Assembly: GCA_963664875.1 (NCBI GenBank)
Contig: OY761611.1
Span: 1,760,958 to 1,824,957, forward strand
Source of the DNA: Candidatus Kapaibacterium sp.
Lineage (GTDB): Bacteria > Bacteroidota > Ignavibacteria > Kapaibacteriales > UBA2268
Reading direction: 5' to 3'
DNA: 64,000 nucleotides
The translations under genes and the position numbers were made by a program. Each line of letters opens with the position of its first letter. The first letter of the stretch is position 1. A model generated the notes under the pieces. It was given only the letters and a program-made list of their open reading frames with translations, was not told the DNA's origin and made no database searches. Positions 5,401 through 57,596 of this stretch are shown here, piece after piece.

Positions 5401-6655
5401 CGCAAATAGTGGGACTTTGGCAGATACTTTGGAGTATAGTGATAATAGTATTGCAGGATTTTCGAATACTTTAAATGATAATCTTATCATTCTTCCAAAT
5501 ACTGATACTACTATCACAATTACATTTGACCCGACACAAACTCAAGGCTTGGGCAATAAATCATACAAAATTACCTTAAGAAGTGAAGTCTGCGATTTTG
5601 AATTTACACATACATCATCGGCTGATATTATAGCTCCAAGAGTTTCATTTTTACCTACAACAGTCAATCTGGGACAGGTTTGGAAAGATTTCTCCAAGGA
5701 TACGGTAATAGTGATTTTTAACAACTCACAAGTAGAAAGAACCATAAGTCATATAGAGTTTATGCCGGAAGTACCGGGATTAGAATTTGATTTTGACCTG
5801 CCTAAAGCAATCCCTGTAGGACTCACAGATACAATATATATCAACTTCAAAGCCACAGAGAAAGGCAACTTCTCAACTAAGCTATTTATTGAAGATAGGT
5901 CTGTATGTATTGATTCTACTTATTTGGACTTTGTTGTTTCTGTGCCTGATGAATATTACAAAGTAGATTTAAGAACCAATAATTACATTTTCGATATTCA
6001 CGAAAAAGGAACCTTAGAAGTATTTCTCGACAATCCTGTTTTCAAATTTAATCCCGAAAATATTACTCTTGACCTGAATTATGATATTAATCTATTTAAT
6101 CCTGAAAAAGCATATCTGCACAACAAAGGAGTGAAAACTGAAATCGAATTTCAGCCCATTTCCAATGGTGTAAGTATCACAAGCAATAGTGTAAGCATAG
6201 ACAGCTTATTCACAGAAGCAGGACTCATACTTTCGGTAGAAGGCAAACCTCTTGCCTCTTTCCCACAATCCAGTGGACTTTTGATTTCTGAAGTTCATTT
6301 TGGTACGAATAAACCTTTTGATTTGGAAACGAAAAATGGTAGCATACAGGTTGAAGGTTACTGCGAAGCTGTGATAAACGATGGTCTAATGATGCTACCA
6401 AATATGCAGGCAAGGCTCATAAACAGCATAAACTCAGATAATATTGTTTTAGAATTGGAAAGCGATTTGCCTCAACTGGCAGATATTTCAATAATAGATT
6501 TGAGTGGCAGTGAAACTAAAGCTAAAATATTCGTAGATAAGAAAGCAGAATATCAGATTAGCACTGCCACTTTCTCTCAGGGAGTATATTTCATTGTGTT
6601 AAAAACAGAATGGGGCAAGCGGGTCGTAACTTCAAAATTTTTAATTTTGAAATAA
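2441..6655 (+). CDS. Large (1404 aa) T9SS-secreted surface protein with an N-terminal BNR/Ycf48-like beta-propeller, multiple Ig-like repeats and a T9SS C-terminal sorting domain
   Basis: There is a signal peptide. BNR-like repeat motifs recur: TDRGKTWRGV, SEDGGINWTDI, TDGGNSWTQ, SYDGGRNWEV, STNGGATWTD, DDAGQSWKE. A long series of roughly 100 aa beta-rich repeats follows. The C-terminus ...ATFSQGVYFIVLKTEWGKRVVTSKFLILK has the Por-secretion-tail pattern. Confidence 0.8.
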   Translation: MKYIYTLLIISFLSFSALQADYWEEVTDITPSSFIDSYWLDIYFLPSNLNYGWVCGRDARVLRTTDRGKTWRGVTLPSTEHLESIHFTTQNIGYVSGVDGIWKSEDGGINWTDITPSDTVSYWGCYFWDSNTGVVVGDGCSLYHQYFWHTTDGGNSWTQFEGNQENSGLTDALIVNPNTEAYAISSGRLWISYDGGRNWEVKDTTGTTVWHEEITKFSNSFLIPTSGTTCSGGGSVGGMRFSTNGGATWTDRSAPRGPMYGTFLINQAKGWACGLYGQVLYTDDAGQSWKEMSCGLDNSHLDDIRFLSETEGWVVGQGLYRLGKNTYEVSEDPVIFPDMCLPGYKDHTIYISNKSFESNIVSLNIIGLDKDDFTLMMPKTTINMASCDDIPVVIRFEPNTLGEKNAILHCEFTGVVTRDIPLNGFALEPSLIMDSTTIVINPAYCGLMNSRYIELGSLTKKDTIDSYNKKNGSNDIKILSSMPLGVTVGSTFAVEATPKDTGWVEAQYLLHLKPCENDTVITVRAYGVSPIINAPLQIQQVLACTNKGEILIPISNTGNTELYLPNLDFIEDNANFKFKGTKSKKSFPLSIAQGSSDTLIVELLPQDFGIHEETLYIYNNDSTKVRGNKNPFIIELRYEYSTPLPEISTEKIDFGRICLGESQLQSFKFFNKGSIELTLTNILAELNLFGIDSEKYSNRTIHPLDSLEIDINFLATEIGKKYDTLKIVTNPCEDTLFVVLTSQVETAAIRATPEDVLLNLQTGESEEASLNLKSYSTIDLNITNISLVPENPDLLVQFADTFPLELKSGKSLDLLYSIIASKDLSYSGSLCIETDGFCDADTCIPFTIESFSGKIELSANDINFGYFTCEPQTITKSITITNSSDYADTLTKITINPTGDFAITNLPSLPLLMKSGDELTLDISYVIQNEGKFSAELLISSYLMQGRDIKVPLDIEFRTPKISVSALSADFGTKERCDIATSFSFSIANSGTLADTLEYSDNSIAGFSNTLNDNLIILPNTDTTITITFDPTQTQGLGNKSYKITLRSEVCDFEFTHTSSADIIAPRVSFLPTTVNLGQVWKDFSKDTVIVIFNNSQVERTISHIEFMPEVPGLEFDFDLPKAIPVGLTDTIYINFKATEKGNFSTKLFIEDRSVCIDSTYLDFVVSVPDEYYKVDLRTNNYIFDIHEKGTLEVFLDNPVFKFNPENITLDLNYDINLFNPEKAYLHNKGVKTEIEFQPISNGVSITSNSVSIDSLFTEAGLILSVEGKPLASFPQSSGLLISEVHFGTNKPFDLETKNGSIQVEGYCEAVINDGLMMLPNMQARLINSINSDNIVLELESDLPQLADISIIDLSGSETKAKIFVDKKAEYQISTATFSQGVYFIVLKTEWGKRVVTSKFLILK

Positions 6656-10702: not shown

Positions 10703-10986
10703 GTTGTCCCCTGAATGATATATATATGTGAGTGTGAGTGTTAATTAGCCGTTAGCATTTTTCTAATATAAGAAATAAAAAACAAAATTGCATAGAGAAT
10801 AGTAAAAATGCTTCGACTTCTGATACTATTAACTTACCAAAAGGTCAAATATTTAGCTTTGACAGAGAAATAAGCTCAGAGGCTATACGAAGTTTATATA
10901 ATATCCAAAGCAATATTTAGCTTTTAATCTTATCAGTGTTTTATTTAAATAGTATCTTTTTTGAACTTTATTCGTATTATTAGCAA

Positions 10987-11925
10987 TTGTTTTTCGATTT
11001 TGTACTTTCGTTACATCTAAAGCCGGAGCGTATAGTGAAAAATGTAATTTATACTTTTGCCATTCTATTGTTGACTTTTTCCGTTTCCCTTTCTGCTCAA
11101 GACACTTATGTAGAAGATGAAGCAGATACACTAACTAAGCAGGAACCAAGGATTACTCATCGAGATGTATTGGACAGTCTCAAAAGATTTGTCAATACAA
11201 GATCTGCTATCGGCTTGATGGGAGGAACAACAATTAACGATAATAGCGATGCTTTCGGTGAAGGGAATACTTCTTTTGGTTTCTTTTTGGGTACTATTAG
11301 CACTACAAGATTAGAATTTGAAAACATAATTGATGTAGATCAGTCGCATTTAGGCATCAACTTTACGGATTTCATAGGCGAATCAGGCAACAAGTTTAGC
11401 TTATTTTCCGTCGAACTTTCAGATGTGGCAGGAAAATCATGGGAGTTGTCAAAGGATCACCTTTTAGGTTTCTATGTTGGTGGTGCTATTACATGGACAA
11501 ATATTGACCTCGAAAATCCATATTTAGGTAGCTTTAACGAAGGTGAAGCCCGAATATCAGCAGAGGATGATGATTATCTGGCTACAAATTTTGGTGACAC
11601 CTATAAATGGGGTATCACATATTCTGTTGCAGAATCTATTAATTTTAATGCAGGCTGGGAATCCAATCACGTATTGCATCACTTTCTGCCTTACAAATAT
11701 ATCTTGAGTAGAATGCTTTATGCTCTTGGCCATGAAATTATCAAAGGAACCAGTTCTACAATTTTTGGAGTAAATTATTTTACGCCTGTAGTCGATTTCG
11801 TGCTTAGAGGTGCGTATTATTTACTCTTAGATAATATAAATAAAAAGGAAATGTACGGCCCATATAGTGGTTCGCCTTCATTCCACTTCAATCAATTCAA
11901 ATTTGCAGTTTCTTACAGTTTGTAA
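10987..11925 (+). CDS. Hypothetical secreted protein, possibly an outer-membrane protein
   Basis: The real start is probably the internal GTG or ATG giving VKNVIYTFAILLLTFSVSLSAQD, which is a signal peptide. The protein is beta-rich and ends ...FKFAVSYSL, an aromatic-rich C-terminus. No family was recognised. Confidence 0.5.
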   Translation: MFFDFVLSLHLKPERIVKNVIYTFAILLLTFSVSLSAQDTYVEDEADTLTKQEPRITHRDVLDSLKRFVNTRSAIGLMGGTTINDNSDAFGEGNTSFGFFLGTISTTRLEFENIIDVDQSHLGINFTDFIGESGNKFSLFSVELSDVAGKSWELSKDHLLGFYVGGAITWTNIDLENPYLGSFNEGEARISAEDDDYLATNFGDTYKWGITYSVAESINFNAGWESNHVLHHFLPYKYILSRMLYALGHEIIKGTSSTIFGVNYFTPVVDFVLRGAYYLLLDNINKKEMYGPYSGSPSFHFNQFKFAVSYSL

Positions 11926-19024: not shown

Positions 19025-19063
19025 ACAATTTAGATTTGTTTATCTCATCAGTTAGCTGAGTTG

Positions 19064-19100
19064 CCGCAGATATCACCAAGGTATCTGCGGTTTTTTTTTG
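19064..19100 (+). terminator. Rho-independent terminator after the aldehyde dehydrogenase gene
   Basis: The stem CCGCAGATA...TATCTGCGG is followed by a T9 run. Confidence 0.75.
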
Positions 19101-19141
19101 GAAGATATTTTAGTTGTTCAAGTTAAATTCACCAAGAATTA

Positions 19142-45114: not shown

Positions 45115-46743
45115 TTACATTTTCCTGTATTTTCCATCTTTTAATTCCAATTGCAGATACCGGAGGTAGCTATCTTCCGCAAATTTCGTTTGATGCAAAA
45201 AATAATCTTTGTGAATTGGCAATTGCTCCAAATCGCCTCGGAGCACTTTGTGTGTGTTGAATATCTTTTGGAAGATAAAATTTATGATTTTACTATTCAG
45301 CAAATCGGCAAGCTGACTGTGAGTGATACCAGCGTCCTCGTGCAATATCAGCATATTGGCACTATTTAAAAAAAAGCTTTGCTTTCTGTCGCATACAAAA
45401 GACAGTTTCGAGGATATAAACTTATAAATCAGCTTCTCTTTAGCCTGATAAAGATGAATTGGAGCTACCTGTTGGTACAAGCTCAAATCTGCAGGTATGT
45501 AATTGGAAGCATTTTTCAAACCACCTTCGCTTATGTCTGCCCCTTTGTAAACAGGGATATAACCCGCTTGGTTTTCTGACTGTAAAAATTTAGAGTTACT
45601 TCCAGTTACAATACCCATGCCCCATTCGGCTCTACTTTGCAAAGTAATATGCGGCTGATTGTAAATGTGTTCAATGATTTTACTATCCTCGACAGAACAG
45701 AAAAAATTAAAGATAGCCTTAGGATTTTGTTTGAAAGATTCGCGTTCCCTAAAGTGCGAATAATCTGCTCCTTCGCAGAGAATATCATGCTTTTCTTTTG
45801 AGCATTTTTGCAGAGTGATTGCCTGAGCTTTTGTAATCAGCCCGCCAAAACATTTCCCATAATCTTTCATTTTCAATATTTTATTCTGCAATGCTTTGTT
45901 GCGGGCGTCTTCAAATATTTGAATATTGAAAAAAGCTTCCTGCAGTAAAAATCCTAAATACCCACCCTCTTTCAATGACTTTATCGCTGCAAAGAAAAAC
46001 AGGGAACTCGTGTCATTGCTTTTTCCGGAAGCAAAATAATTAGATAATTGTACTTTGCTTTCTGCATCAATCTTTTTTCCCCATGGCGGATTGGTAAAAA
46101 TCAAATCGAACTGCAAATCTGTCTGAGTTATATGCTTCAAAAAATCAGCATTTTGTATATTTTTACATTCTTTCCCGGTTTTTTCCAATATTCTTTGTTT
46201 GGCTATAGCTACTGCCACCGGATCGGTATCAAATCCGTAAATATTATCAGGAGAAATTCCCAATTCTAATGCTCTCATTAGAAAATTGCCGGAACCACAG
46301 CAAGGATCGCAAAATGTCAGTGCTGAGAAATCGGGCAAAAGCTCAACGCTTAACATATCTTCTACAACATCAAAAGGAGTGTAATAAATGCCTTCTTTAT
46401 TGCGAAAAGAGTCCGAAAGTTCATTTTCGTATTCCGAACCTAATATTTCCAAATCTGACTCGCCTCTTTTCAGCCTTGCAGTAATGGCTTGGGCAAGTAG
46501 ATTTTGATTGTGCTTGTCCTTGACTGATTTGTTAGCTCTGTTGTTGAGTTTATAAGTCCCTGCTACTTCATGCAGAAATTTCTCAAGAGAAACTGCACAC
46601 ACCATTCCTTTGGAAGTCTGAACCAAATACTTCGTTTTGATCCAATTACGGATAGTGGCTACTGAGACTTTAGCCTGCTTGGCTGCTTCTTTAATAGGTA
46701 TTTCCGTGACCTTGGGATTGATAGAATTTTTCGCAGGTTGCAT
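45115..46743 (-). CDS. N6-adenine-specific DNA methyltransferase (gamma-class, NPPW motif) with an N-terminal helix-turn-helix
   Basis: Motif I is FCDPCCGSGNFLMRALE. Motif IV is FDLIFTNPPWGKK. The N-terminal AKQAKVSVATIRNWIK is an HTH. A target-recognition-like region of about 250 aa lies at the C-terminus. No restriction endonuclease gene is adjacent. Confidence 0.8.
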   Translation of the reverse strand: MQPAKNSINPKVTEIPIKEAAKQAKVSVATIRNWIKTKYLVQTSKGMVCAVSLEKFLHEVAGTYKLNNRANKSVKDKHNQNLLAQAITARLKRGESDLEILGSEYENELSDSFRNKEGIYYTPFDVVEDMLSVELLPDFSALTFCDPCCGSGNFLMRALELGISPDNIYGFDTDPVAVAIAKQRILEKTGKECKNIQNADFLKHITQTDLQFDLIFTNPPWGKKIDAESKVQLSNYFASGKSNDTSSLFFFAAIKSLKEGGYLGFLLQEAFFNIQIFEDARNKALQNKILKMKDYGKCFGGLITKAQAITLQKCSKEKHDILCEGADYSHFRERESFKQNPKAIFNFFCSVEDSKIIEHIYNQPHITLQSRAEWGMGIVTGSNSKFLQSENQAGYIPVYKGADISEGGLKNASNYIPADLSLYQQVAPIHLYQAKEKLIYKFISSKLSFVCDRKQSFFLNSANMLILHEDAGITHSQLADLLNSKIINFIFQKIFNTHKVLRGDLEQLPIHKDYFLHQTKFAEDSYLRYLQLELKDGKYRKM

Positions 46744-47044
46744 GAATAATTTGATTTAGTATTTAAGTAGGCAGTTTTTATATCTAATGATAGTCCAAAT
46801 TTACATACCATAGCCTCAAAATACAACATAATAATCTCTGTGATAAGAAAGCAAGAGCAAAAGAATACCTTAACCTCATCAAAATCTGTCAGTTTTGCAG
46901 ACTGTATTGCAATTATGTCAGACTTCGAGATGCCGTTTTGACATACATAAAAAATCTAAACGCCATTTTGGCACGCCACTACGCCATATTGACGTGTTTT
47001 TAGTTTTGGCACGGTTTTGCTAATAAGTTATTATGTAAGCGAAA

Positions 47045-47527
47045 TTGACACAACAAAAAAGCAAAAAATATATCAAAGGAGATTTGAAAATGACAATGAT
47101 TAAATTCGACCCGGTTAGACATTTTGAGAATATGACTCGCAAAATGCAACACATAGCCAACGAGGCTGAAAAAGGTTTTGTATTCGAAAAAGGTGGTTTC
47201 AATCCGAGAGTTGACATCACTGAATACGACAACAAAGTAGTGGTCTATGCGGAAGTGCCCGGTTTGGCAAAAGAAGACGTTAAAGTATCGGTAAACGAAG
47301 AAAGAATTTTGACTATCAAAGGCGAAAAAAAGAAACCAGAGCTTGCTGAAGGCGAATCGCTCATCCGCATGGAACGCTCTTTTGGTGAATTCTCCAGATC
47401 ATTTATGCTCCCTGAAGATATTGATTTGGAAAACATCAAGGCTTCTTTCAAACATGGTCTGTTAGAATTGACTTTGAGCAAAAAAGAACCCGAAGAGCCA
47501 AAAGAGATTAATATCACAATCGAATAG
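47045..47527 (+). CDS. Small heat-shock protein (Hsp20/alpha-crystallin family), copy 1
   Basis: The alpha-crystallin domain reads PRVDITEYDNKVVVYAEVPGLAKEDVKV...GLLELTLSKKEP. The likely true start is the ATG at about 47090 (MTMIKFDP), which has an AAGGAG SD. Confidence 0.9.
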   Translation: MTQQKSKKYIKGDLKMTMIKFDPVRHFENMTRKMQHIANEAEKGFVFEKGGFNPRVDITEYDNKVVVYAEVPGLAKEDVKVSVNEERILTIKGEKKKPELAEGESLIRMERSFGEFSRSFMLPEDIDLENIKASFKHGLLELTLSKKEPEEPKEINITIE

Positions 47528-47714
47528 TTTAAATAAGAGAGTCCGGTGTTTGACAGACAACCCCATAGCAAAGACATTAGACAGATGTAGCTCGTTTTCA
47601 TAGCACCAGTATATTAAAAGAAACAGAATGACAGTATATCGGCATCGGACTCTTCTTTAACAAAAAGTATTAAAGAAAATAAAAAAAAGCAAAAAATAAA
47701 AAGGAGATATAAAA

Positions 47715-48164
47715 ATGGCAGTAGTAAGATTTGATCCTTTCAGAGGATTTGAAAGAATAAATAAGAGAATGGGGCAATTTGTTGACGAAATGGAAAAAGG
47801 TTTTAGAGTAGAGTATGGATCATTTGCCCCCACGATTGACATAGTTGAAGACGAAAAAACTTTGAAGCTCTTCGCGGAGCTTCCCGGTATTCCGAAAGAG
47901 CAGGTCAAAATCACTGTAAACGAAGACAAAGTGCTTATAATCAAAGGCGAAAAGAAAAGATGCGAGGAAGAAACTGACGAATGCAAGGAAAAAGCTTATA
48001 TCAGAGCAGAAAGAAGTTTTGGTGAGTTTTCCCGCTCTTTCCAGCTACCGGAAAATATCAATACCGACTCAATCAATGCTAAATTCGAAAATGGTGTGCT
48101 AAGCATATCTTTGAGTAAAAAAGAGCCGGTAAAACCAAAAGAAGTTGAAGTAACGATAGACTAA
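47715..48164 (+). CDS. Small heat-shock protein (Hsp20 family), copy 2
   Basis: The sequence reads PTIDIVEDEKTLKLFAELPGIPKEQVKI...GVLSISLSKKEP. The SD is AAAGGAG. Confidence 0.9.
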   Translation: MAVVRFDPFRGFERINKRMGQFVDEMEKGFRVEYGSFAPTIDIVEDEKTLKLFAELPGIPKEQVKITVNEDKVLIIKGEKKRCEEETDECKEKAYIRAERSFGEFSRSFQLPENINTDSINAKFENGVLSISLSKKEPVKPKEVEVTID

Positions 48165-48287
48165 AATTGAATTGATTGTATTTTGTTCAGGTCTCGAACA
48201 ACAGCAAGGAATAAAGAATCTTAAGTTTTTTACCCAAAAACAAATTGACCAAATAGTAATGTTCAACAACCTAATCGGAGGTGTATT

Positions 48288-48740
48288 GTGACTTTAGTAA
48301 AATATGATCCGTTTACCGGTGTAGATGGCTTAATCCGCAGAATGGACAGATGGATGGATGGCTTTAACAGAAGAAGCATGGTGTTTAATACATCAGCATG
48401 GATGCCTAAAATTGACGTACACGAAGAGGCAGATAGATTTTGGATTTCTGCGGAACTACCCGGCATAGCAAAAGAAGACGTTAAGGTAAAAGTAAACGAC
48501 GACAATATGCTTATCATCTCCGGCGAAAAGAGAAGCGTATTTGAGGAAAATGATGAAAAAGATGATAAGCGTCTGATTCGCTCTGAAAGATCTTACGGCA
48601 GTTTCACGCGCTCATTCATTTTGCCTGACAATGTTGATAAAGACAGCATCAAAGCAAAATATGAAAACGGCGTGTTGAATATGGAAATATTGAAGAAAGA
48701 ACCGGAAAAACCAAGCGAAACAGAAATAACTATAGACTAA
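48288..48740 (+). CDS. Small heat-shock protein (Hsp20 family), copy 3
   Basis: The sequence reads PKIDVHEEADRFWISAELPGIAKEDVKV...GVLNMEILKKEP. The start codon is GTG, with an SD of GGAGGTG. Confidence 0.9.
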   Translation: MTLVKYDPFTGVDGLIRRMDRWMDGFNRRSMVFNTSAWMPKIDVHEEADRFWISAELPGIAKEDVKVKVNDDNMLIISGEKRSVFEENDEKDDKRLIRSERSYGSFTRSFILPDNVDKDSIKAKYENGVLNMEILKKEPEKPSETEITID

Positions 48741-51730: not shown

Positions 51731-51764
51731 AAAAAAAAGACTCTATGAATTATATCATAGAGTC
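51731..51764 (-). terminator. Rho-independent terminator (minus strand) after the small-membrane-ORF cluster
   Basis: The 10 bp stem GACTCTATGA...TCATAGAGTC is preceded on the plus strand by A8, which gives T8 on the minus strand. Confidence 0.65.
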
Positions 51765-51815
51765 CAATAATAGGTAAGGAAAAAATATTTTCCCAAACAG
51801 TACTTGTTATAATTG

Positions 51816-52181
51816 CTAAGTTTCTTTGTTTCGAGACATATTCCCAAAAAACGCTAAAAAAGTTCCATATGATTGAACAATCATGCTTGGTGACATCAGT
51901 ATTTGGATAATATCGAAATCATTTGCACTATTTAGAAAAAAAAGATACAAAGAAATAAGAAGCAATATTTCCGATGCATACCTCATCATAATATATACTT
52001 TTTTTTCTTTAAAATTGAAAAACAATCTGTTAATTAAGACAATATTGCTAAACAATAATATTAAATGTGCTTCTGAGTTTGCATACTTATCAAAAATAAA
52101 TATACTATACAGTAAGAACAACTCTATACTTGCTAAAACAATGAAACCGGTCACCAATAGTGCAGTATTTCTTTTTTTCAT
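51816..52181 (-). CDS. Hypothetical small membrane protein (121 aa)
   Basis: About three hydrophobic helices are predicted. A minus-strand terminator follows about 55 nt downstream. The region is AT-rich, so confidence is low. Confidence 0.3.
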   Translation of the reverse strand: MKKRNTALLVTGFIVLASIELFLLYSIFIFDKYANSEAHLILLFSNIVLINRLFFNFKEKKVYIMMRYASEILLLISLYLFFLNSANDFDIIQILMSPSMIVQSYGTFLAFFGNMSRNKET

Positions 52182-52247
52182 AATATTCTACTTCTTTTTA
52201 ATCACCGAAAAAACGAGCAAAACTGTTATATATTAAGGTAGCCGTGT

Positions 52248-52484
52248 TCATTGCTTCCTTCTTTTTAGCAGTGCATCTTTGCTATATTTTACTCCATAGA
52301 TGATGACATGCGGAAGAATAGCTATATTAATCATAAAAAAGTAAACATGCAGCAAATCTAACTCTATCAAAACTAAGACCGCTATAAATATCAGCACTTC
52401 TATATATAGATATATCGGTTTCATGTCATACCTGCGATTATAAATTACAATTCGCAAAATACACAATATTATATTCATTTTCAT
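52248..52484 (-). CDS. Hypothetical small membrane protein (78 aa)
   Basis: About two hydrophobic helices are predicted. It has the same orientation as its neighbours. Confidence 0.25.
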   Translation of the reverse strand: MKMNIILCILRIVIYNRRYDMKPIYLYIEVLIFIAVLVLIELDLLHVYFFMINIAILPHVIIYGVKYSKDALLKRRKQ

Positions 52485-52778
52485 ATAGAATACAGCATAG
52501 AGTGTAAGTTTTATGCTCTATTAGCTACTATTTACCTATACTACCTGCTAAAAGCTACCTGAGAAGCCTGACCGTCTAAGTGCTGGATGCCAAGGCTGTT
52601 AAATCTAAAGTTTTGCCTTTTAAGGAGTATTTGGAGTTAAATGTTTTTATTATTTATGACTATGCTGATAGTTTGTTTCAATTATAGTAATCAAAGGGCT
52701 CTGTTTATCATTGTCGAAGAACATGATATTACATAATCAGAAAAAGTTCTACAAATACAGTTCAGAATCAATAGACTA

Positions 52779-52967
52779 TCAAACAAAAAGCCAAAACAAA
52801 ACAACTACTAATGCCACATAGCAACTGAAAAAAATATACTTTTTATTTCTGTTGCCAAAGAATATATTCGATACTTTGGCATATAAAACAGGATTGTTCT
52901 TTTCTGTTTTATGTTTCAGAATAAAAATCGAAAATAATATTCCAAAATACAATAAAAACAATACCAT
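52779..52967 (-). CDS. Hypothetical small membrane protein (62 aa)
   Basis: It consists of two hydrophobic segments. It has the same orientation as, and lies downstream of, the paralogous lipoprotein genes. Confidence 0.2.
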   Translation of the reverse strand: MVLFLLYFGILFSIFILKHKTEKNNPVLYAKVSNIFFGNRNKKYIFFSCYVALVVVLFWLFV

Positions 52968-53040
52968 AGGATTTACCCTAAAATTATTTTTTGAATTCTA
53001 TGTAGGTTTAGGTCGAAAACCTAAACCTACGTATGTTTGA

Positions 53041-53940
53041 TTAATCCCACCAACCGAAAAGATATTTACCTGCTGCGGCAACTCCACAAACAACTGCATT
53101 GGTCACCACTACAGCAGAACTACCAGAGGCAGCTGCAGCACCTGGCAAAGCTCCGATTCCTCCTGTACAAACACCACCTGCAATTGCTCCAGCAGCATCA
53201 GCTAATACAGTTCCAACTGCACAAGCAGCAACAGCAGCTTCTGTTTTTCCAATCTTTTTAGAAACTACATTTTGTTCTTTTGCTCCTAACAACTTGCTTA
53301 CGTTAAATTCATAAGAATGTTTCACGATAGCAATAGTTTTAAGAGCCATAGTTTCTTCTTCATCCCATGTCTCTTGTAAAATCTTACTTTCTACTGCTTG
53401 AATTCGATTAGCAATACTTGCCAAAGTAAACATCTCCTCTCCTTCAATAATATTTCGTAATTCATCAAAAATGTAAACTACCATATTAGCATCTTTCTCA
53501 GAAGTACAGCCATATATGGTCTCTCTTAATGAGGATGTCAGAAAATAGCCTGTGTTTAGTTCGTTTACTGCTGTTTTAAATCCGTTAGATATTAGGAAAT
53601 CATCCACTTCTTGTTCAGATACGTTTAGGGACTGATTATTAAGAGCTCCAGTGATAATAGTCAACACTTTGCTATTAAAGTTGTCATCTTCATAGTTAGA
53701 AGTACTAGTAAACTCACCTGATTGGTAGTAAGGCAATAATTGCTGAAAAACTTCTTCCATAGCTTTATTATGTATTTCGCCTAAGTAATCATAGGGATTT
53801 ACTAACTGTACTTGGACACTATTTGTTATAGTATTGTTTGACATTGCAGGAACAACAGATTCATTGTCTTCTGTACAACTCATCAAACCAAAGATTGAAA
53901 GCGATAATGCCATTAAGGCAAGGATAATTTTTGTTTTCAT
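53041..53940 (-). CDS. Secreted lipoprotein with a C-terminal Gly/Ala-rich glycine-zipper tail (bacteriocin/microcin-like)
   Basis: The N-terminus MKTKIILALMALSLSIFGLMSC has a lipobox. The C-terminus is AVAACAVGTVLADAAGAIAGGVCTGGIGALPGAAAASGSSAVVVTNAVVCGVAAAGKYLFGWWD. Confidence 0.6.
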   Translation of the reverse strand: MKTKIILALMALSLSIFGLMSCTEDNESVVPAMSNNTITNSVQVQLVNPYDYLGEIHNKAMEEVFQQLLPYYQSGEFTSTSNYEDDNFNSKVLTIITGALNNQSLNVSEQEVDDFLISNGFKTAVNELNTGYFLTSSLRETIYGCTSEKDANMVVYIFDELRNIIEGEEMFTLASIANRIQAVESKILQETWDEEETMALKTIAIVKHSYEFNVSKLLGAKEQNVVSKKIGKTEAAVAACAVGTVLADAAGAIAGGVCTGGIGALPGAAAASGSSAVVVTNAVVCGVAAAGKYLFGWWD

Positions 53941-53975
53941 TTTGATATCTGTAATTAGTTTTTACATTAAGTAAT

Positions 53976-54102
53976 TGAATTACTATTGCTTTTAAGCGAA
54001 AAAGCAATAATTTACAGTGCATGATTTCGTGTAAGTCAAACATTTCGAAATCACGTGCGTTTTGTAGCCGATTACTCCCCAGTATCGGCTCTTTTTTTGC
54101 CG
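53976..54102 (+). repeat. Conserved upstream element, copy 1: three hairpins, the last being an intrinsic terminator on the plus strand
   Basis: Copy 1 is nearly identical to 55217-55344. The first hairpin is TATTGCTTTT...AAAAGCAATA. The second is TGATTTCG...CGAAATCA and contains the palindrome ATTTCGAAAT. The third is AGCCGATTACT-CCCC-AGTATCGGCT followed by T7. Confidence 0.7.
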
Positions 54103-54314
54103 TTTGTGTAATTTAGTTATAGTTTTTAGAACACTTTACTCCTGTTTCTTATTGAATATGATATTCCTATTTCGTAAAACTGATTTTTGAAGTTAAATGT
54201 TCCAAAATAGAACAACCATTTTGCAAAGAAAATTATTACAAGTATACTTTATAATACAAAATTAGCGAGTTAACTTTTATGTATTCATCCTATTACATAT
54301 TAGTATGCTATATT

Positions 54315-55181
54315 TTATTTTCCCCAGTTGCCTAAGTCAACTTCTCCCAACCAAACCTCAGCTATATCAGGCTCGAGTTTAACAAGCCCCATTTTAATTA
54401 ACACTTCAAGCCATGAACCAGGTAAAACAACTACACCTTTCAAGCTAATAAAACCATCAGGCATAAACTTGATATTCCCATTGCCAAACCAGAACAAACT
54501 CCCCAAAAACATTTGCATAGTCGGCTTAGTAAAGATTGGCAATTCACCTTCATAGTCCGGTTTACAGCCGGTTTGGACAAACCAAACATCTTTATCTTCA
54601 TCTATAAGATTATTCCAATATACTGCATTAGCAAGACTTAGTTCACAAGCATTAAGTAAGATACTTTTTTTCGAGGACAACAATCCAAAATCACTATTAA
54701 TTGCTTTTTTTATTTCAGTGATTTTAGAATCCATCTCAGCTATATCATTAACATTTGCAATTATATCTGCGATTTGTCTGATATAATTTTTCACTAAATC
54801 AGAAATATTCGCATTATTATAATAATCCTGTAATGAGATCGATTGTATCATTGTGTAATTTTCTACAATCCAATCGTTGAATTCTGTCGGAATTGAATTC
54901 ATATCTGAAGCTACAAATATGTTGCTCTTGTACATATTGCTAAAGCTCTGATAATCACATAATCCAATGAATTGATCTTTTAAACTAAAAAAATTATGCC
55001 AAGTTTGATTAAGCTGGTAAGAAACCTCAGTATTCAATATGCTAAGTTTTGACACATTTGAACTGCTAAATTCGCTTGAATTATCTGATGGCATTGTGTT
55101 AGAAGCTTGTTCCGTACAACTCATAAGACCAAAGATAGAAATCGATAATGCCATAATAGCAAGAATAATTTTTGTTTTCAT
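54315..55181 (-). CDS. Secreted lipoprotein paralog
   Basis: The N-terminus MKTKIILAIMALSISIFGLMSC matches the 53041..53940 gene at 19 of the first 22 residues. The rest of the protein has diverged. Confidence 0.6.
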   Translation of the reverse strand: MKTKIILAIMALSISIFGLMSCTEQASNTMPSDNSSEFSSSNVSKLSILNTEVSYQLNQTWHNFFSLKDQFIGLCDYQSFSNMYKSNIFVASDMNSIPTEFNDWIVENYTMIQSISLQDYYNNANISDLVKNYIRQIADIIANVNDIAEMDSKITEIKKAINSDFGLLSSKKSILLNACELSLANAVYWNNLIDEDKDVWFVQTGCKPDYEGELPIFTKPTMQMFLGSLFWFGNGNIKFMPDGFISLKGVVVLPGSWLEVLIKMGLVKLEPDIAEVWLGEVDLGNWGK

Positions 55182-55216
55182 ATTTTTAACTGTAATATGA
55201 TTCTACATTATTTTAT

Positions 55217-55344
55217 TGAATTCCTATTGCTTCTTTTCAAAAAAAGCAATATATTACAGTGCATGATTTCGTGTAAGTCAAACATTTCGAAATCACGTGC
55301 GTTTTGTAGCCGATTACTCCCCAGTATCGGCTCTTTTTTTGCCG
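55217..55344 (+). repeat. Conserved upstream element, copy 2
   Basis: Copy 2 is about 95% identical to 53976-54102 over roughly 125 bp. It includes the same hairpin and T-run terminator. Confidence 0.7.
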
Positions 55345-55455
55345 AAATTATTTTTTACTTTTTGTCAAGAAATATATCACCTATAAATCAATGAATAAAC
55401 TATTTTCGTCTGTTATTATAGTCAAATATCAACAGCACTAATTTAGCAATTTCTC

Positions 55456-55495
55456 AAAAAAAAAAAAAACGAAAATGCTATGTTTCTTTAGCATT
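55456..55495 (-). terminator. Rho-independent terminator (minus strand) about 200 bp beyond the esterase terminator
   Basis: The plus strand carries an A14 run followed by AATGCTA...TAGCATT. On the minus strand this is a hairpin followed by T14. Confidence 0.5.
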
Positions 55496-55671: not shown

Positions 55672-55710
55672 TTACAAAAAAAGAGCATAAGACCTGCATC
55701 CTATGCTCTT
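55672..55710 (-). terminator. Rho-independent terminator after the esterase gene (minus strand)
   Basis: The stem AGAGCATA...TATGCTCT is preceded on the plus strand by A-rich sequence, which gives a T-run on the minus strand. Confidence 0.7.
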
Positions 55711-55733
55711 TGATATGAATATCTGTATAGCAA

Positions 55734-57596
55734 CTATTGCACTATTACTTTTACATTTTTTCCGTTGAGGATTAAATTGTAAACTCCGGCGGAAAGTGCT
55801 CTTAAATCAAGCTGTTTCCCGTCCGCTTTTACTGCAGAAGTAACATCATTACCTAAAATATCAACTACTTTATATGTACTTGGTAGCTCAGTATTGATTG
55901 TAATAAAGTCAGCTGTAGGATTAGGGAATACTGAGATTTCTTCTTCGTTTGTTTCTTCTACTGAAACATTAGGATCTAAGATAATATTATCTATAAGAGT
56001 CATACCGCCCATTGCTCCATAAACTGAGAATTTGAATTGAGCGTGTTCGGACATATATTTAGAATCAAGATCAATTCTTTCAGTTCTCCAGTTTTCCTCT
56101 GCCGGTTTTACATTGTAGATATAAGTCTGTTCAAATATATCTTTGAATGGCTCATCATAAGTCGCAAGCTCTTCTCTTGTTTTTCTGTATATCTCTTCGA
56201 AAGTTTTACCACCGTCTATTGAGATTTCTACTACAAGAGTATCAGAGTAAATATATTCTGTTCCCTGAATATTATAATGGAAGTAGTTATAAGCAACATC
56301 AAAAGATAAATATGGAGCCATACCATCAATATTAAAGAATGGAGAAATCAGCTCATCTTTGAAGCCTTCGTAGTTAAATACCATAAGTGTAGGATTGCTG
56401 TAAAATGCCATAGCATAGTTGTCTCCATCTTGGTAAGGTTGCCAAGTTTCTAGTTGAGGGGATTCTTCTAAAAACCAATCATTTTCTAATTCGTTACCCG
56501 GAGCAGGATTGAATACATAAGGCAATTTATGAGGTTCCTCTGTGTAATAAATTGTATGTACAGTTTCTTCCTCTTCTTCTTTTGCTACGCCATTTACTTC
56601 CAGTACTTTGAAAGAAATATCATTTAGTCCCGGCTCTAAAGCACCTGCTTCCACTTCGAGCGATTCAAAAACGTACTGTTCAGCTTCGCCTTCCCAAGTA
56701 TATTCGTATGAATTAGTACCATTAGAAACTTCAAATTTGCAAGAAGTGATAGAGTTGTCTCCGGCACCTCTAAATCTGATATTAAACTTAGGTGTTTCTT
56801 CCAAAGTGTTGTTCGGTGAATCTATATCCATGATTTCTACTATGTCGTTGCCCATATTGTCCCCGTTAAAAGCAACCTGTGCAACCGGGAACGCATGATA
56901 AACAATAGAGTGTCCCATATCAGGAATCACAAAGTGACGCATAATTGCATTGTATTTTTCTAAACTGTCAACTACCATCTGAATTGGTTCTAAATAAAAA
57001 ATATCATCAGCACCATTTGTAATAATCATAGGAACCTTTCTTGCATTTTCATAACGAATGCGTTCGAAAATGCCTAAATCAGCATATAAATTCATTGCAT
57101 CTTTCGGCCCTTGCACTGCAGGAGTATTTAGTATTAGAGTATGAAATTTTTCCGGGTACTGCAAACCATAGCACATAGCCGAGCGCGCACCAAGAGAAAA
57201 GCCTTCAAGAAATATTCTGTCTTCAGCTACATTGTAGTTTGCTTTAACATAGTCGATACACTTGTCAACTATAGTAATGTCTTCACGAGGCTCGTAGAAG
57301 TCTCTGTTTTGGTCATCGCCACCATCAGGAATAACATAAATATAGTTATTATACATTGGGTCTAATTCCGCAACAGATTTAGCAAAAGCTGCCATATTCG
57401 CAGAGTTGTCACCCAAACCATGTAGCATAATCATTACATCATAAGCTTTTGTACCATCGTAATCCAAAGGTACATAAAGCGAAACAGGTCTGTCTTCATC
57501 CAAATGAGGAAGTGTGATATTAATTAAGCCGGTTTCCTGCGAAAAAGCAGTGCCAAAGCAAATAAATAAAGCGAGTAGAGTAGATAAGTATTTCAA
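55734..57596 (-). CDS. T9SS-secreted alpha/beta-hydrolase (esterase/lipase or depolymerase-like) with a C-terminal sorting domain
   Basis: An HGLGDNS oxyanion-hole-like segment is present. The nucleophile elbow is GFSLGA (GxSxG). The C-terminus ...GVYNLILNGKNVKVIVQ is a T9SS C-terminal domain. The start codon is TTG, with a GGGAGA SD. Confidence 0.75.
   Translation of the reverse strand: MKYLSTLLALFICFGTAFSQETGLINITLPHLDEDRPVSLYVPLDYDGTKAYDVMIMLHGLGDNSANMAAFAKSVAELDPMYNNYIYVIPDGGDDQNRDFYEPREDITIVDKCIDYVKANYNVAEDRIFLEGFSLGARSAMCYGLQYPEKFHTLILNTPAVQGPKDAMNLYADLGIFERIRYENARKVPMIITNGADDIFYLEPIQMVVDSLEKYNAIMRHFVIPDMGHSIVYHAFPVAQVAFNGDNMGNDIVEIMDIDSPNNTLEETPKFNIRFRGAGDNSITSCKFEVSNGTNSYEYTWEGEAEQYVFESLEVEAGALEPGLNDISFKVLEVNGVAKEEEEETVHTIYYTEEPHKLPYVFNPAPGNELENDWFLEESPQLETWQPYQDGDNYAMAFYSNPTLMVFNYEGFKDELISPFFNIDGMAPYLSFDVAYNYFHYNIQGTEYIYSDTLVVEISIDGGKTFEEIYRKTREELATYDEPFKDIFEQTYIYNVKPAEENWRTERIDLDSKYMSEHAQFKFSVYGAMGGMTLIDNIILDPNVSVEETNEEEISVFPNPTADFITINTELPSTYKVVDILGNDVTSAVKADGKQLDLRALSAGVYNLILNGKNVKVIVQ

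Follow-up and report, generated by a model that had tools for sequence, protein, structure and literature searches.

Glycine-zipper lipoproteins with small membrane-protein partners behind a shared leader and signal peptide in Candidatus Kapaibacterium: a candidate toxin/immunity cassette

We describe a block of minus-strand genes at positions 51731 to 55344 of a 64,000-nucleotide stretch of DNA from Candidatus Kapaibacterium sp. (contig OY761611.1 of assembly GCA_963664875.1, positions 1,760,958 to 1,824,957 of the forward strand), which we call the window and whose numbering is used for all of its features. The block encodes two lipoproteins, lipoA and lipoB, and a small multi-pass membrane protein, ORF121. 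The lipoB protein belongs to a family of lipoproteins that carry a C-terminal glycine zipper and are paired with a small membrane-protein gene, and both lipoproteins of the block stand behind copies of one structured leader and signal peptide, after which the mature domain is exchanged between genomes. We propose, with confidence that is about evenly balanced, that lipoprotein and partner form a toxin/immunity cassette, in which a surface lipoprotein with a membrane-damaging glycine zipper is matched by an inner-membrane immunity protein and a shared leader and export platform serves the pair. This reading is drawn from the gene pairing, the exchange point directly behind the signal peptide, the relics together with a retained partner gene, the rarity of the family and its carriage on a phage, and the precedents offered by known systems.

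Searches of 5.8 billion proteins returned, besides the query proteins themselves, a single match, the 322-aa protein P0002, which is 30% identical to lipoB and comes from a metagenome-assembled genome (MAG) of Candidatus Kapaibacterium, a genus placed in the phylum Bacteroidota. A profile made from mature lipoB and P0002 recovered 38 proteins of 239-326 aa from 1.84 billion representative sequences. The motif NPYxxxGxxHN is present in 36 of the 39 aligned family sequences, and 34 of them have an aromatic C terminus; the column of the lipobox Cys is nearly invariant, the helical region terminates in L..IA..K.S..FW, and residues D248, G251 and G255 of lipoB are invariant or nearly so. A glycine-zipper tail had already been noticed on one of the two lipoproteins in an earlier, sequence-only reading of this DNA, and it is indeed found on lipoB, where overlapping GxxxG motifs in a Gly/Ala-rich tail give seven zipper matches within the last 110 residues. 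Because a zipper of the ADxxGxxxGxxxG type closes 37 of the 39 sequences, the glycine-rich tail defines the family and is not a peculiarity of lipoB. Judged by the presence of repeated (G/A/S)xxxGxxx(G/A/S) on a hydrophobic helix, lipoB has a zipper and lipoA has none. The AF2 model of lipoB (pLDDT 73.9, pTM 0.72) is all-helical, with tail helices at residues 234-258 and 264-293. Over its full length, tail included, lipoB is also 30% identical (E = 9e-33) to a 320-aa paralogue with a complete zipper tail at a second site in the MAG that holds P0002 (locus L003). The family has neither a Pfam or NCBIfam model nor a PDB or fold match and, being named in none of the databases searched, is on this evidence undescribed. 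At the P0002 locus (L001), a 19-nt unit, GATTCAATGTGGAACCGCT, stands three times in tandem at 10950-11010, across the stop codon of the P0002 gene, and a change in its copy number would alter the C terminus of the protein.

The second component of the cassette is the gene that follows. In all seven related loci counted for pairing (L003, L006, L011, L012/L013, L014, L016 and L001) a multi-pass hydrophobic gene of 115-147 aa lies directly downstream of the lipoprotein gene; in the first six it encodes 2-4 hydrophobic segments and is 0-70 nt away, the 122-aa partner of L003 beginning 12 nt after its lipoprotein gene. The sequence-only reading had seen in the window the layout of a bacteriocin with its immunity genes, and this strict pairing of a lipoprotein with a membrane-protein gene, which fits a toxin and its immunity factor, is the part of that suggestion that stands. 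ORF121 is 54% identical to the 122-aa partner of L003 (E = 6e-43), has relatives 97% and 93% identical in other metagenomes, and is intact as an ORF in three metagenomic relatives; its dN/dS against close relatives is 0.32-0.44, calculated from few substitutions. ORF121 and the partners of L003 and L006 (122 and 115 aa) are detectably homologous, the other partners have diverged past recognition, and no partner protein matches Pfam. The 1671-bp contig of L006, which holds a family member and its partner, carries the same 93-nt ORF end at 1-93 and 1516-1608; this repeat could mean that modules stand in tandem or that the assembly is artefactually circular.

In the window, 860 bp separate lipoB from ORF121, and this interval contains relics of other genes. 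The L003 sequence 6912-7441 matches window positions 52246-51718 (blastn, 74.5% identity), the homology beginning ~50 nt ahead of the stop codon of the L003 lipoprotein gene, and further stop codons occur upstream in the frame of the resulting relic. Together with the homology of ORF121 to its L003 counterpart, this relic indicates that an L003-type gene for a glycine-zipper lipoprotein formerly stood upstream of ORF121; as that gene is now reduced to 17 codons, ORF121 is not simply the downstream gene of lipoB. A type IX secretion gene has also left a decayed copy of its 3' end, terminator included, in the spacer downstream of lipoB, and L001 has the same relic at 11426-11560. A decayed terminator copy at ~52485-52522 pairs, as inverted repeat I1, with the esterase terminator at 55679-55716. 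The stem-loop immediately after lipoB was read as 15 pairs with a 5-nt loop on the plus strand in a consensus scan and as a 13-bp stem with a 3-nt loop by RNA folding, and it has no T-run 3' of it on the minus strand. With so strong a hairpin directly 3' of lipoB, there is no obvious case for transcription of the small ORFs together with that gene.

All five minus-strand ORFs of the sequence-only reading lie where it had placed them. Of the three that it took for small membrane-protein genes, ORF121 is supported by its relatives, whereas those of 62 and 78 aa (ORF62 and ORF78) are not. Among the compared loci these two have no significant relative beyond a faint likeness of ORF62 to ORF121, in the N-terminal half of the latter (E = 0.002 by BLASTP against a tiny database, E = 0.013 by HMM); the protein databases were not searched with them. 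ORF62 may be what decay has left of a partner-type gene. In L010, a relative ~95% identical, a 2-nt indel puts the upstream part of ORF78, including both of its ATG starts, out of frame. The opposite strand also holds ORFs of like size, for example one of 117 aa at 51883-52236, so that in this AT-rich DNA the mere presence of an ORF is no evidence of a gene. ORF62 and ORF78 are probably debris of earlier cassettes, and the hairpin, ORF62, the type IX relic and the lipoprotein relic together show the stretch 3' of lipoB to be an accumulation of remains from earlier arrangements rather than an operon of three immunity genes. The view that a duplicated lipoprotein effector and three immunity genes of 62, 78 and 121 aa form one operon is thus largely contradicted, and we find it hardly tenable. 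In its favor, the ORFs all share one strand and are bounded by the esterase terminator and that at 51738-51765, and the three small ones are hydrophobic. Against it, the two lipoproteins are unrelated in their mature parts, the gene calls of the source assembly omit ORF62 and ORF78, which are also without relatives in the compared loci, the start of ORF78 is broken in a close relative, and remains of a type IX secretion gene, a terminator and a lipoprotein gene lie between the ORFs, beyond the strong hairpin that follows lipoB.

Comparison between genomes separates what is fixed in the module from what is exchanged. P0002 is encoded at the syntenic site, beside the same radical-SAM genes and behind the same leader and signal peptide, and a scan with the back-translated signal peptide added two loci, L003 and, at the same site in a related MAG, L005. 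Over 5.5 kb, L003 and L005 share 93.7% identity, up to a point 86 nt into the lipoprotein ORF, just after C-GEDAENS. Past this breakpoint L003 continues with 1.4 kb that encode a mature zipper domain and the 122-aa partner, and L005 with 0.47 kb that encode a Cys/Gly-rich peptide; homology resumes 3' of the swapped segment, and L003 retains the 3' end of an L005-type payload as a 58-aa ORF. Four different mature domains sit behind the one leader and signal peptide. The module shows several features by which polymorphic toxin/immunity cassettes are recognized: a fixed N-terminal delivery part, an exchangeable C terminus with its downstream gene, that downstream gene being small in each of the seven loci, and relics with an orphan partner gene. 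The swap, the payload remnant and a phage-borne member indicate that the module is accessory and mobile, and the sequence-only reading, to which the block had looked like an accessory region, was right in this, as the swap between L003 and L005, the relics and the orphaned partner gene bear out; it was right as well about the AT-richness of the block, whose GC content is 0.285-0.316 against ~0.34-0.42 in the rest of the window. At L005 6001-6633, the shared leader and signal peptide are followed by an ORF for a Cys/Gly-rich lipopeptide of 88 aa (..GGSGGCTASGWGCDC). This ORF overlaps a 106-aa ORF that starts MFFCDCDC, and the two may be one frameshifted gene encoding an alternative payload.

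The phage-borne member, P0010, is encoded with its 118-aa partner among phage genes (L014 1-10963, also L015) that include those of a Mu F-like head protein and tail-completion protein S; the module itself lies between a DNA methylase/restriction endonuclease gene and VRR-NUC and D5-primase genes, in a cargo-like position. A phage-derived module could act in superinfection exclusion or in lysis, as a spanin- or holin-like system, with the chromosomal copies as prophage remnants. The surroundings of the L014 pair would agree with such an origin, and a lipoprotein with a C-terminal membrane segment resembles a unimolecular spanin, of which gp11 of phage T1 is an example. We nevertheless consider this origin very unlikely: the L014 copy lies outside any lysis cassette, no phage genes stand beside the copies in the window, L003, L012 and L001, the PHROGs matches are three sporadic hits to single members, and Foldseek found nothing at E <= 0.001 among viral structures.

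The fixed part of the module is a conserved leader of ~165 nt and the signal peptide that follows it. The sequence-only reading had described one ~130 bp element before both lipoprotein genes; the repeat is real, but its unit is ~255 nt long (53869-54123 and 55110-55365) and comprises ~185 nt of upstream sequence and 72 nt encoding the signal peptide. A 91-nt core is 100% identical between the two copies, the part encoding the signal peptide is ~85% identical, and two words taken from the repeat, a 28-mer and a 46-mer, are found in the window exactly two times each, where chance would give 0. The signal peptides, previously reported as identical, share their lipobox and agree at 22 of 24 residues, MKTKIILA(I/L)MALS(I/L)SIFGLMS-C. 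Both large ORFs do carry the lipoprotein signal predicted for them, of the signal peptidase II (SPII) type with Cys22 (..FGLMS-C), as judged by a signal peptide ending in [LVI][ASTVI][GAS]C. Third codon positions of this part vary normally among the leader copies, which argues that it is conserved as protein.

Five leader copies from three genomes can be aligned, with invariant stems and variable loops. Between the window and L001 the leader is 83-88% identical, against 79% and 76% for the adjacent housekeeping genes, the 79% being that of the radical-SAM genes, and the mature lipoprotein DNA of the two genomes is unalignable (blastn). The RNAalifold consensus consists of two hairpins (H1 and H2), then a domain that is closed by ACUGUAAU/AUUACAGU and encloses a third (H3); the long-range helix closes ~8 nt ahead of the AUG. 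Leader A folds better in the sense (-42.8 kcal/mol, z = -5.2) than in the antisense direction (-36.3 kcal/mol, z = -3.5), and two one-sided changes to or from G-U are tolerated on the sense strand only. The covariance model of the leader scores 189.9 bits for Leader A and 171.6 bits for Leader B. A partial sixth copy at L005 7776-7844 consists of the upstream flank and H1 only, ahead of a gene for a 427-aa type IX secreted protein; as judged by eye, its H1 has one compensatory change, G-C to A-U, and one C-G to U-G change. The whole window gave no match to Rfam 15 at the gathering score, and the E-value mode yielded microRNA matches at chance level (<=18 bits). A metagenome scan with a leader 20-mer, like the back-translated signal-peptide patterns, found no further copies, so that the leader is known from three genomes only. 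It is a candidate new regulatory RNA.

Two other explanations of the leader were considered. An upstream ORF within it was rejected, since frame and length differ among the five copies through indels in the H3 loop. An antisense RNA ending at H1 was not adopted, as the G-U pairs and the better folding favor the sense strand and the synonymous sites of the signal peptide vary normally. H1, an A-run and a stem, does have the shape of an intrinsic terminator on the opposite strand, where it might end an antisense transcript. The covariance model weakly matches (24 bits) window 19029-19103, the terminator of a plus-strand aldehyde dehydrogenase gene, and its catching of an ordinary terminator reflects the same property of H1. 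Farther upstream, a (T/G)ATATTTG box lies ~240-270 nt ahead of the AUG in four leader copies. A T14 homopolymer is found at window ~55462-55475 (minus strand), ~290 nt upstream of the lipoA start codon, and again in L001 (9714-9727), with a T9 tract in L005 (~5712-5720); the box follows 15-30 nt downstream in four copies. Tract and box may be a promoter element or a site of slipped-strand phase variation.

The two lipoprotein genes of the window had been taken for a duplicated module, and this does not hold. lipoA and lipoB are alike over residues 1-32 only, with no further BLASTP similarity between the mature parts. lipoA has neither the NPY motif nor a zipper in the count of family motifs, and no partner ORF lies downstream of it. 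Its matches among the 5.8 billion proteins are lipoA itself and the signal peptide of P0002. An hhalign comparison of lipoA with the family profile gave a probability of 32% over 68 columns, and membership of lipoA in the lipoB family is, on these comparisons, not demonstrable.

The mechanism that we propose has the leader and the 24-residue signal peptide as a platform behind which differing mature domains are fused. lipoB would be exported by Sec and lipidated at Cys22. In Bacteroidota, the lipoprotein export signal is made up of one polar or basic residue and, after it, two or more acidic ones (PMC5080379). The residues that follow the lipid-modified Cys in lipoB (C-TEDNE) and in the L003 protein (C-GEDAE) resemble this signal at the level of the motif, and 22 of 37 family members have at least two D/E at positions +2 to +6; studies of the signal have not extended to this lineage, and lipoA (C-TEQAS) has a single acidic residue there. 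On the strength of this resemblance, lipoB would probably be flipped outward, onto the cell surface, or enter vesicles. Its helical N-terminal domain would then present the C-terminal zipper hairpin, which, as we propose, would insert into the membrane of a neighboring cell and permeabilize it, and the downstream protein with 3-4 transmembrane segments would act as the immunity factor in the inner membrane. On the same reading one toxin gene of the window would have been deleted to its last 17 codons and its partner, ORF121, kept intact, to persist as an orphan immunity gene or to serve lipoB.

Several observations weigh against such a toxin. When ten family tails were compared with Pfam and NCBIfam, every bacteriocin, microcin and toxin match stayed below threshold, so that the class II bacteriocin, microcin and zipper families with which the sequence-only reading had associated the tail gain nothing from the profile search. 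The best match for class II bacteriocins and microcins was E492 microcin, with E = 0.58 and 10.7 bits where the cut-off is 50, and the curated Pfam glycine-zipper families reached 12.8 (Gly-zipper_YMGG) and 10.5 bits (Gly-zipper_Omp) against cut-offs of 25-29. DUF6861 recurs as a sub-threshold match to the tails, and we found no functional literature on it; PDB entry 28li_A is a weak sequence match (E = 0.0013) that is partly driven by the signal peptide. PADLOC gave no defense-system match, and PHROGs only the hits already mentioned. The L001 protein, like lipoA, is without a zipper. The dN/dS of ORF121 derives from 7-14 substitutions, and one pair gives 1.1. For the leader, 46 predicted pairs show zero compensatory double substitutions among the five full copies. 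Finally, lipoB has no intact adjoining partner gene, and the hairpin separates it from the ORFs downstream; that lipoB may now use ORF121 as its partner tells in turn against calling the latter an orphan immunity gene.

Some of these points bear on a different kind of module altogether. Some outer-membrane lipoproteins that are not toxic, SlyB among them, carry glycine-zipper hairpins too, and the module might be a harmless component of the envelope, with the lipid anchor in the outer membrane, the zipper hairpin in the cell's own membrane (as a SlyB/Pcp-type or spanin-like tether) and the small membrane protein as a structural or assembly partner. That the two genes strictly occur together, that the partner is better conserved than the lipoprotein (54% against 30% between the window and L003) and that the N-terminal NPYxxxGxxHN motif is strongly conserved would suit a stable complex, and no toxin domain is recognizable. 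SlyB is, moreover, the nearest structural glycine-zipper lipoprotein in the PDB to the tail, but the match is insignificant (E = 0.51), as is that to YiaD in NCBIfam (E = 0.2), and the Pfam glycine-zipper families are below threshold. As far as homology alone can tell, the tail is thus not the glycine-rich anchor of a known structural family, an alternative that the sequence-only reading had itself raised; in function it may still be such an anchor. An envelope role also sits poorly with a family that is rare and patchy, with a cassette present in one and absent from another of two genomes 94% identical in the flank, with the deletion of one copy in the window while its partner was retained, with a member carried as phage cargo, and with acidic residues after the Cys that suggest the surface rather than the periplasm. 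We regard it as somewhat unlikely and as the chief rival of the toxin. A toxin/immunity cassette remains our preferred reading, and the sequence-only account of the block comes out as partly confirmed in its observations and partly supported in its interpretation.

The features of the block and its neighborhood are collected in Table 1. On the minus strand their order is esterase, lipoA, lipoB, the ORFs of 62, 78 and 121 aa and then the terminator, which had been rightly called strong (an 11-bp hairpin and T8) and after which two convergent radical-SAM genes follow. The close relatives L008 and L010 lack a 45-nt segment (~51766-51810) that covers most of the terminator hairpin, its 5' arm included, and keep only the 3' arm and the T-run. 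Elsewhere in the window (45115-48740), the source annotation places three HSP20-family genes in a row behind an Eco57I-type fused methylase/restriction gene.

Table 1. Features of the lipoprotein block and its neighborhood, in window coordinates
Feature	Position	Strand	Remarks
lipoB, 299 aa, glycine-zipper lipoprotein	53041..53940	-	lipobox, C-TEDNE, NPYDYLGEIHN, helical domain, ADAAGAIAGG..., terminal GWWD
lipoB glycine-zipper C-terminal domain, ~residues 230-299	53044..53253	-	predicted helical hairpin
ORF121, multi-pass membrane protein, partner (immunity-like) gene	51816..52181	-	called in source assembly
Leader B, second copy, upstream of lipoB	53941..54104	-	H1 54064-54091, H2 within 54012-54057
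Leader A, structured 5' region upstream of lipoA	55182..55346	-	hairpins H1 55306-55333, H2 within 55254-55299, H3
lipoA, 288-aa orphan lipoprotein	54315..55181	-	ORF; signal peptide MKTKIILAIMALSISIFGLMS-C coded at 55110-55181
Strong stem-loop right after lipoB stop codon	52999-53033	-	-18.7 kcal/mol, z = -6.5
ORF62, 62-aa hydrophobic ORF, unsupported as gene	52779..52967	-	absent from source-assembly gene calls
Type IX sorting-domain relic	52574..52618	-	GKTLDLTALASST then stop; blastn to L001 11469-11514, L003 8969-9013
ORF78, 78-aa hydrophobic ORF, unsupported as gene	52248..52484	-	absent from source-assembly gene calls
Lipoprotein 3' relic, last ~17 codons, L003-type gene	52198..52246	-	TATLIYNSFARFFGD then stop, vs L003 ITAIAIYNSFCGFFSGD then stop
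Intrinsic terminator, 11-bp stem and T8, block end	51738-51765	-	-16.0 kcal/mol, z = -5.7
Esterase, 620 aa, with type IX secretion tail	55734-57596	-	upstream neighbor of lipoA

If the toxin/immunity reading is correct, these genes represent a new format of antagonism, in which the zipper is carried by a surface lipoprotein and travels by the general lipoprotein pathway without a dedicated secretion machine. A bolder version, which we think unlikely, would make the leader and signal peptide a dedicated socket, at once a new cis-regulatory RNA and a recombination anchor for unrelated surface-effector cassettes, and would make the zipper lipoproteins and their partners an unrecognized class of lipid-anchored antibacterial toxins with immunity, delivered by contact or in vesicles among Bacteroidota-type bacteria and sometimes borne by phages. 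The lipoprotein family, with its NPYxxxGxxHN motif and glycine zipper, and the family of its partner, which databases do not name either, could be used for annotation and for finding competition loci in poorly studied Bacteroidota, and the leader with its signal peptide offers a tractable case of a fixed expression and export module whose payload is exchanged. Were the envelope explanation true, the module would be a new envelope component, of narrower interest.

Several known systems share parts of this design. In Myxococcus, SitA/SitI use a lipoprotein signal as the delivery tag of a toxin, with the immunity gene directly downstream; the SitA toxins are nucleases that travel by TraAB outer-membrane exchange, and the CDI and Rhs toxins use type V or type VI secretion. 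These systems resemble the present module in their conserved N terminus, their exchangeable C terminus with an immunity gene, their remnants and their orphan immunity genes, whereas here the exchange occurs directly after the signal peptide and a membrane-active zipper is proposed. The Erp/Elp proteins of Borrelia, products of plasmid genes that act in host interaction, are unrelated mature lipoproteins behind an upstream homology box and an OspE/F-like leader peptide. They are alike in placing unrelated payloads behind one upstream region and signal peptide, which implies recombination and co-regulation, but they are not known to have a zipper, a partner gene or a long structured leader of the present kind. 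The SlyB/Pcp-type proteins (Rick_17kDa_Anti, Gly-zipper_Omp, Gly-zipper_YMGG) are likewise lipoproteins with a glycine-rich helical hairpin, but these are short structural proteins of wide conservation that lack an obligate small membrane partner. Class II bacteriocins and microcins, unlike the ~300-aa lipoprotein described here, are small peptides with a double-glycine or Sec leader.

Two systems come closer to the proposed activity. LXG-T2 of S. suis, a toxin of the type VII secretion system, has a helical N terminus of ~200 aa and then a C-terminal glycine-zipper module that damages membranes (PMC12955049). The lipoB family shares with the LXG toxins an N-terminal helical domain, a C-terminal zipper, for which membrane damage is here predicted, and an organization in polymorphic cassettes, but the LXG toxins belong to Gram-positive hosts, depend on type VII secretion and have no lipid anchor; we found no Pfam LXG match and no fold match that would indicate homology. 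TelE of S. gallolyticus is another zipper-bearing LXG toxin. The glycine-zipper bacteriocins CdzC and CdzD of Caulobacter are held on the outer surface of the producer and are proposed to permeabilize their targets, and CdzI, a small transmembrane protein, gives immunity (PMC5380434). No sequence similarity to the module was detected, and the signal here is of the SPII type. Genes for the transporter CdzAB adjoin the toxin genes of the Cdz system, and in the window, L003 and L012 the module has no transporter genes beside it. Each Cdz protein is a peptide of ~85 aa with dedicated type I export, whereas here the zipper is the last 70 aa of a ~300-aa Sec/SPII lipoprotein with a large helical domain. 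The likeness lies in the zipper protein on the surface of the producer, here proposed, and in the small inner-membrane partner encoded adjacent to it. Although the family and its leader are undescribed, the mechanism that we propose for them is a variation on known toxin/immunity logic.

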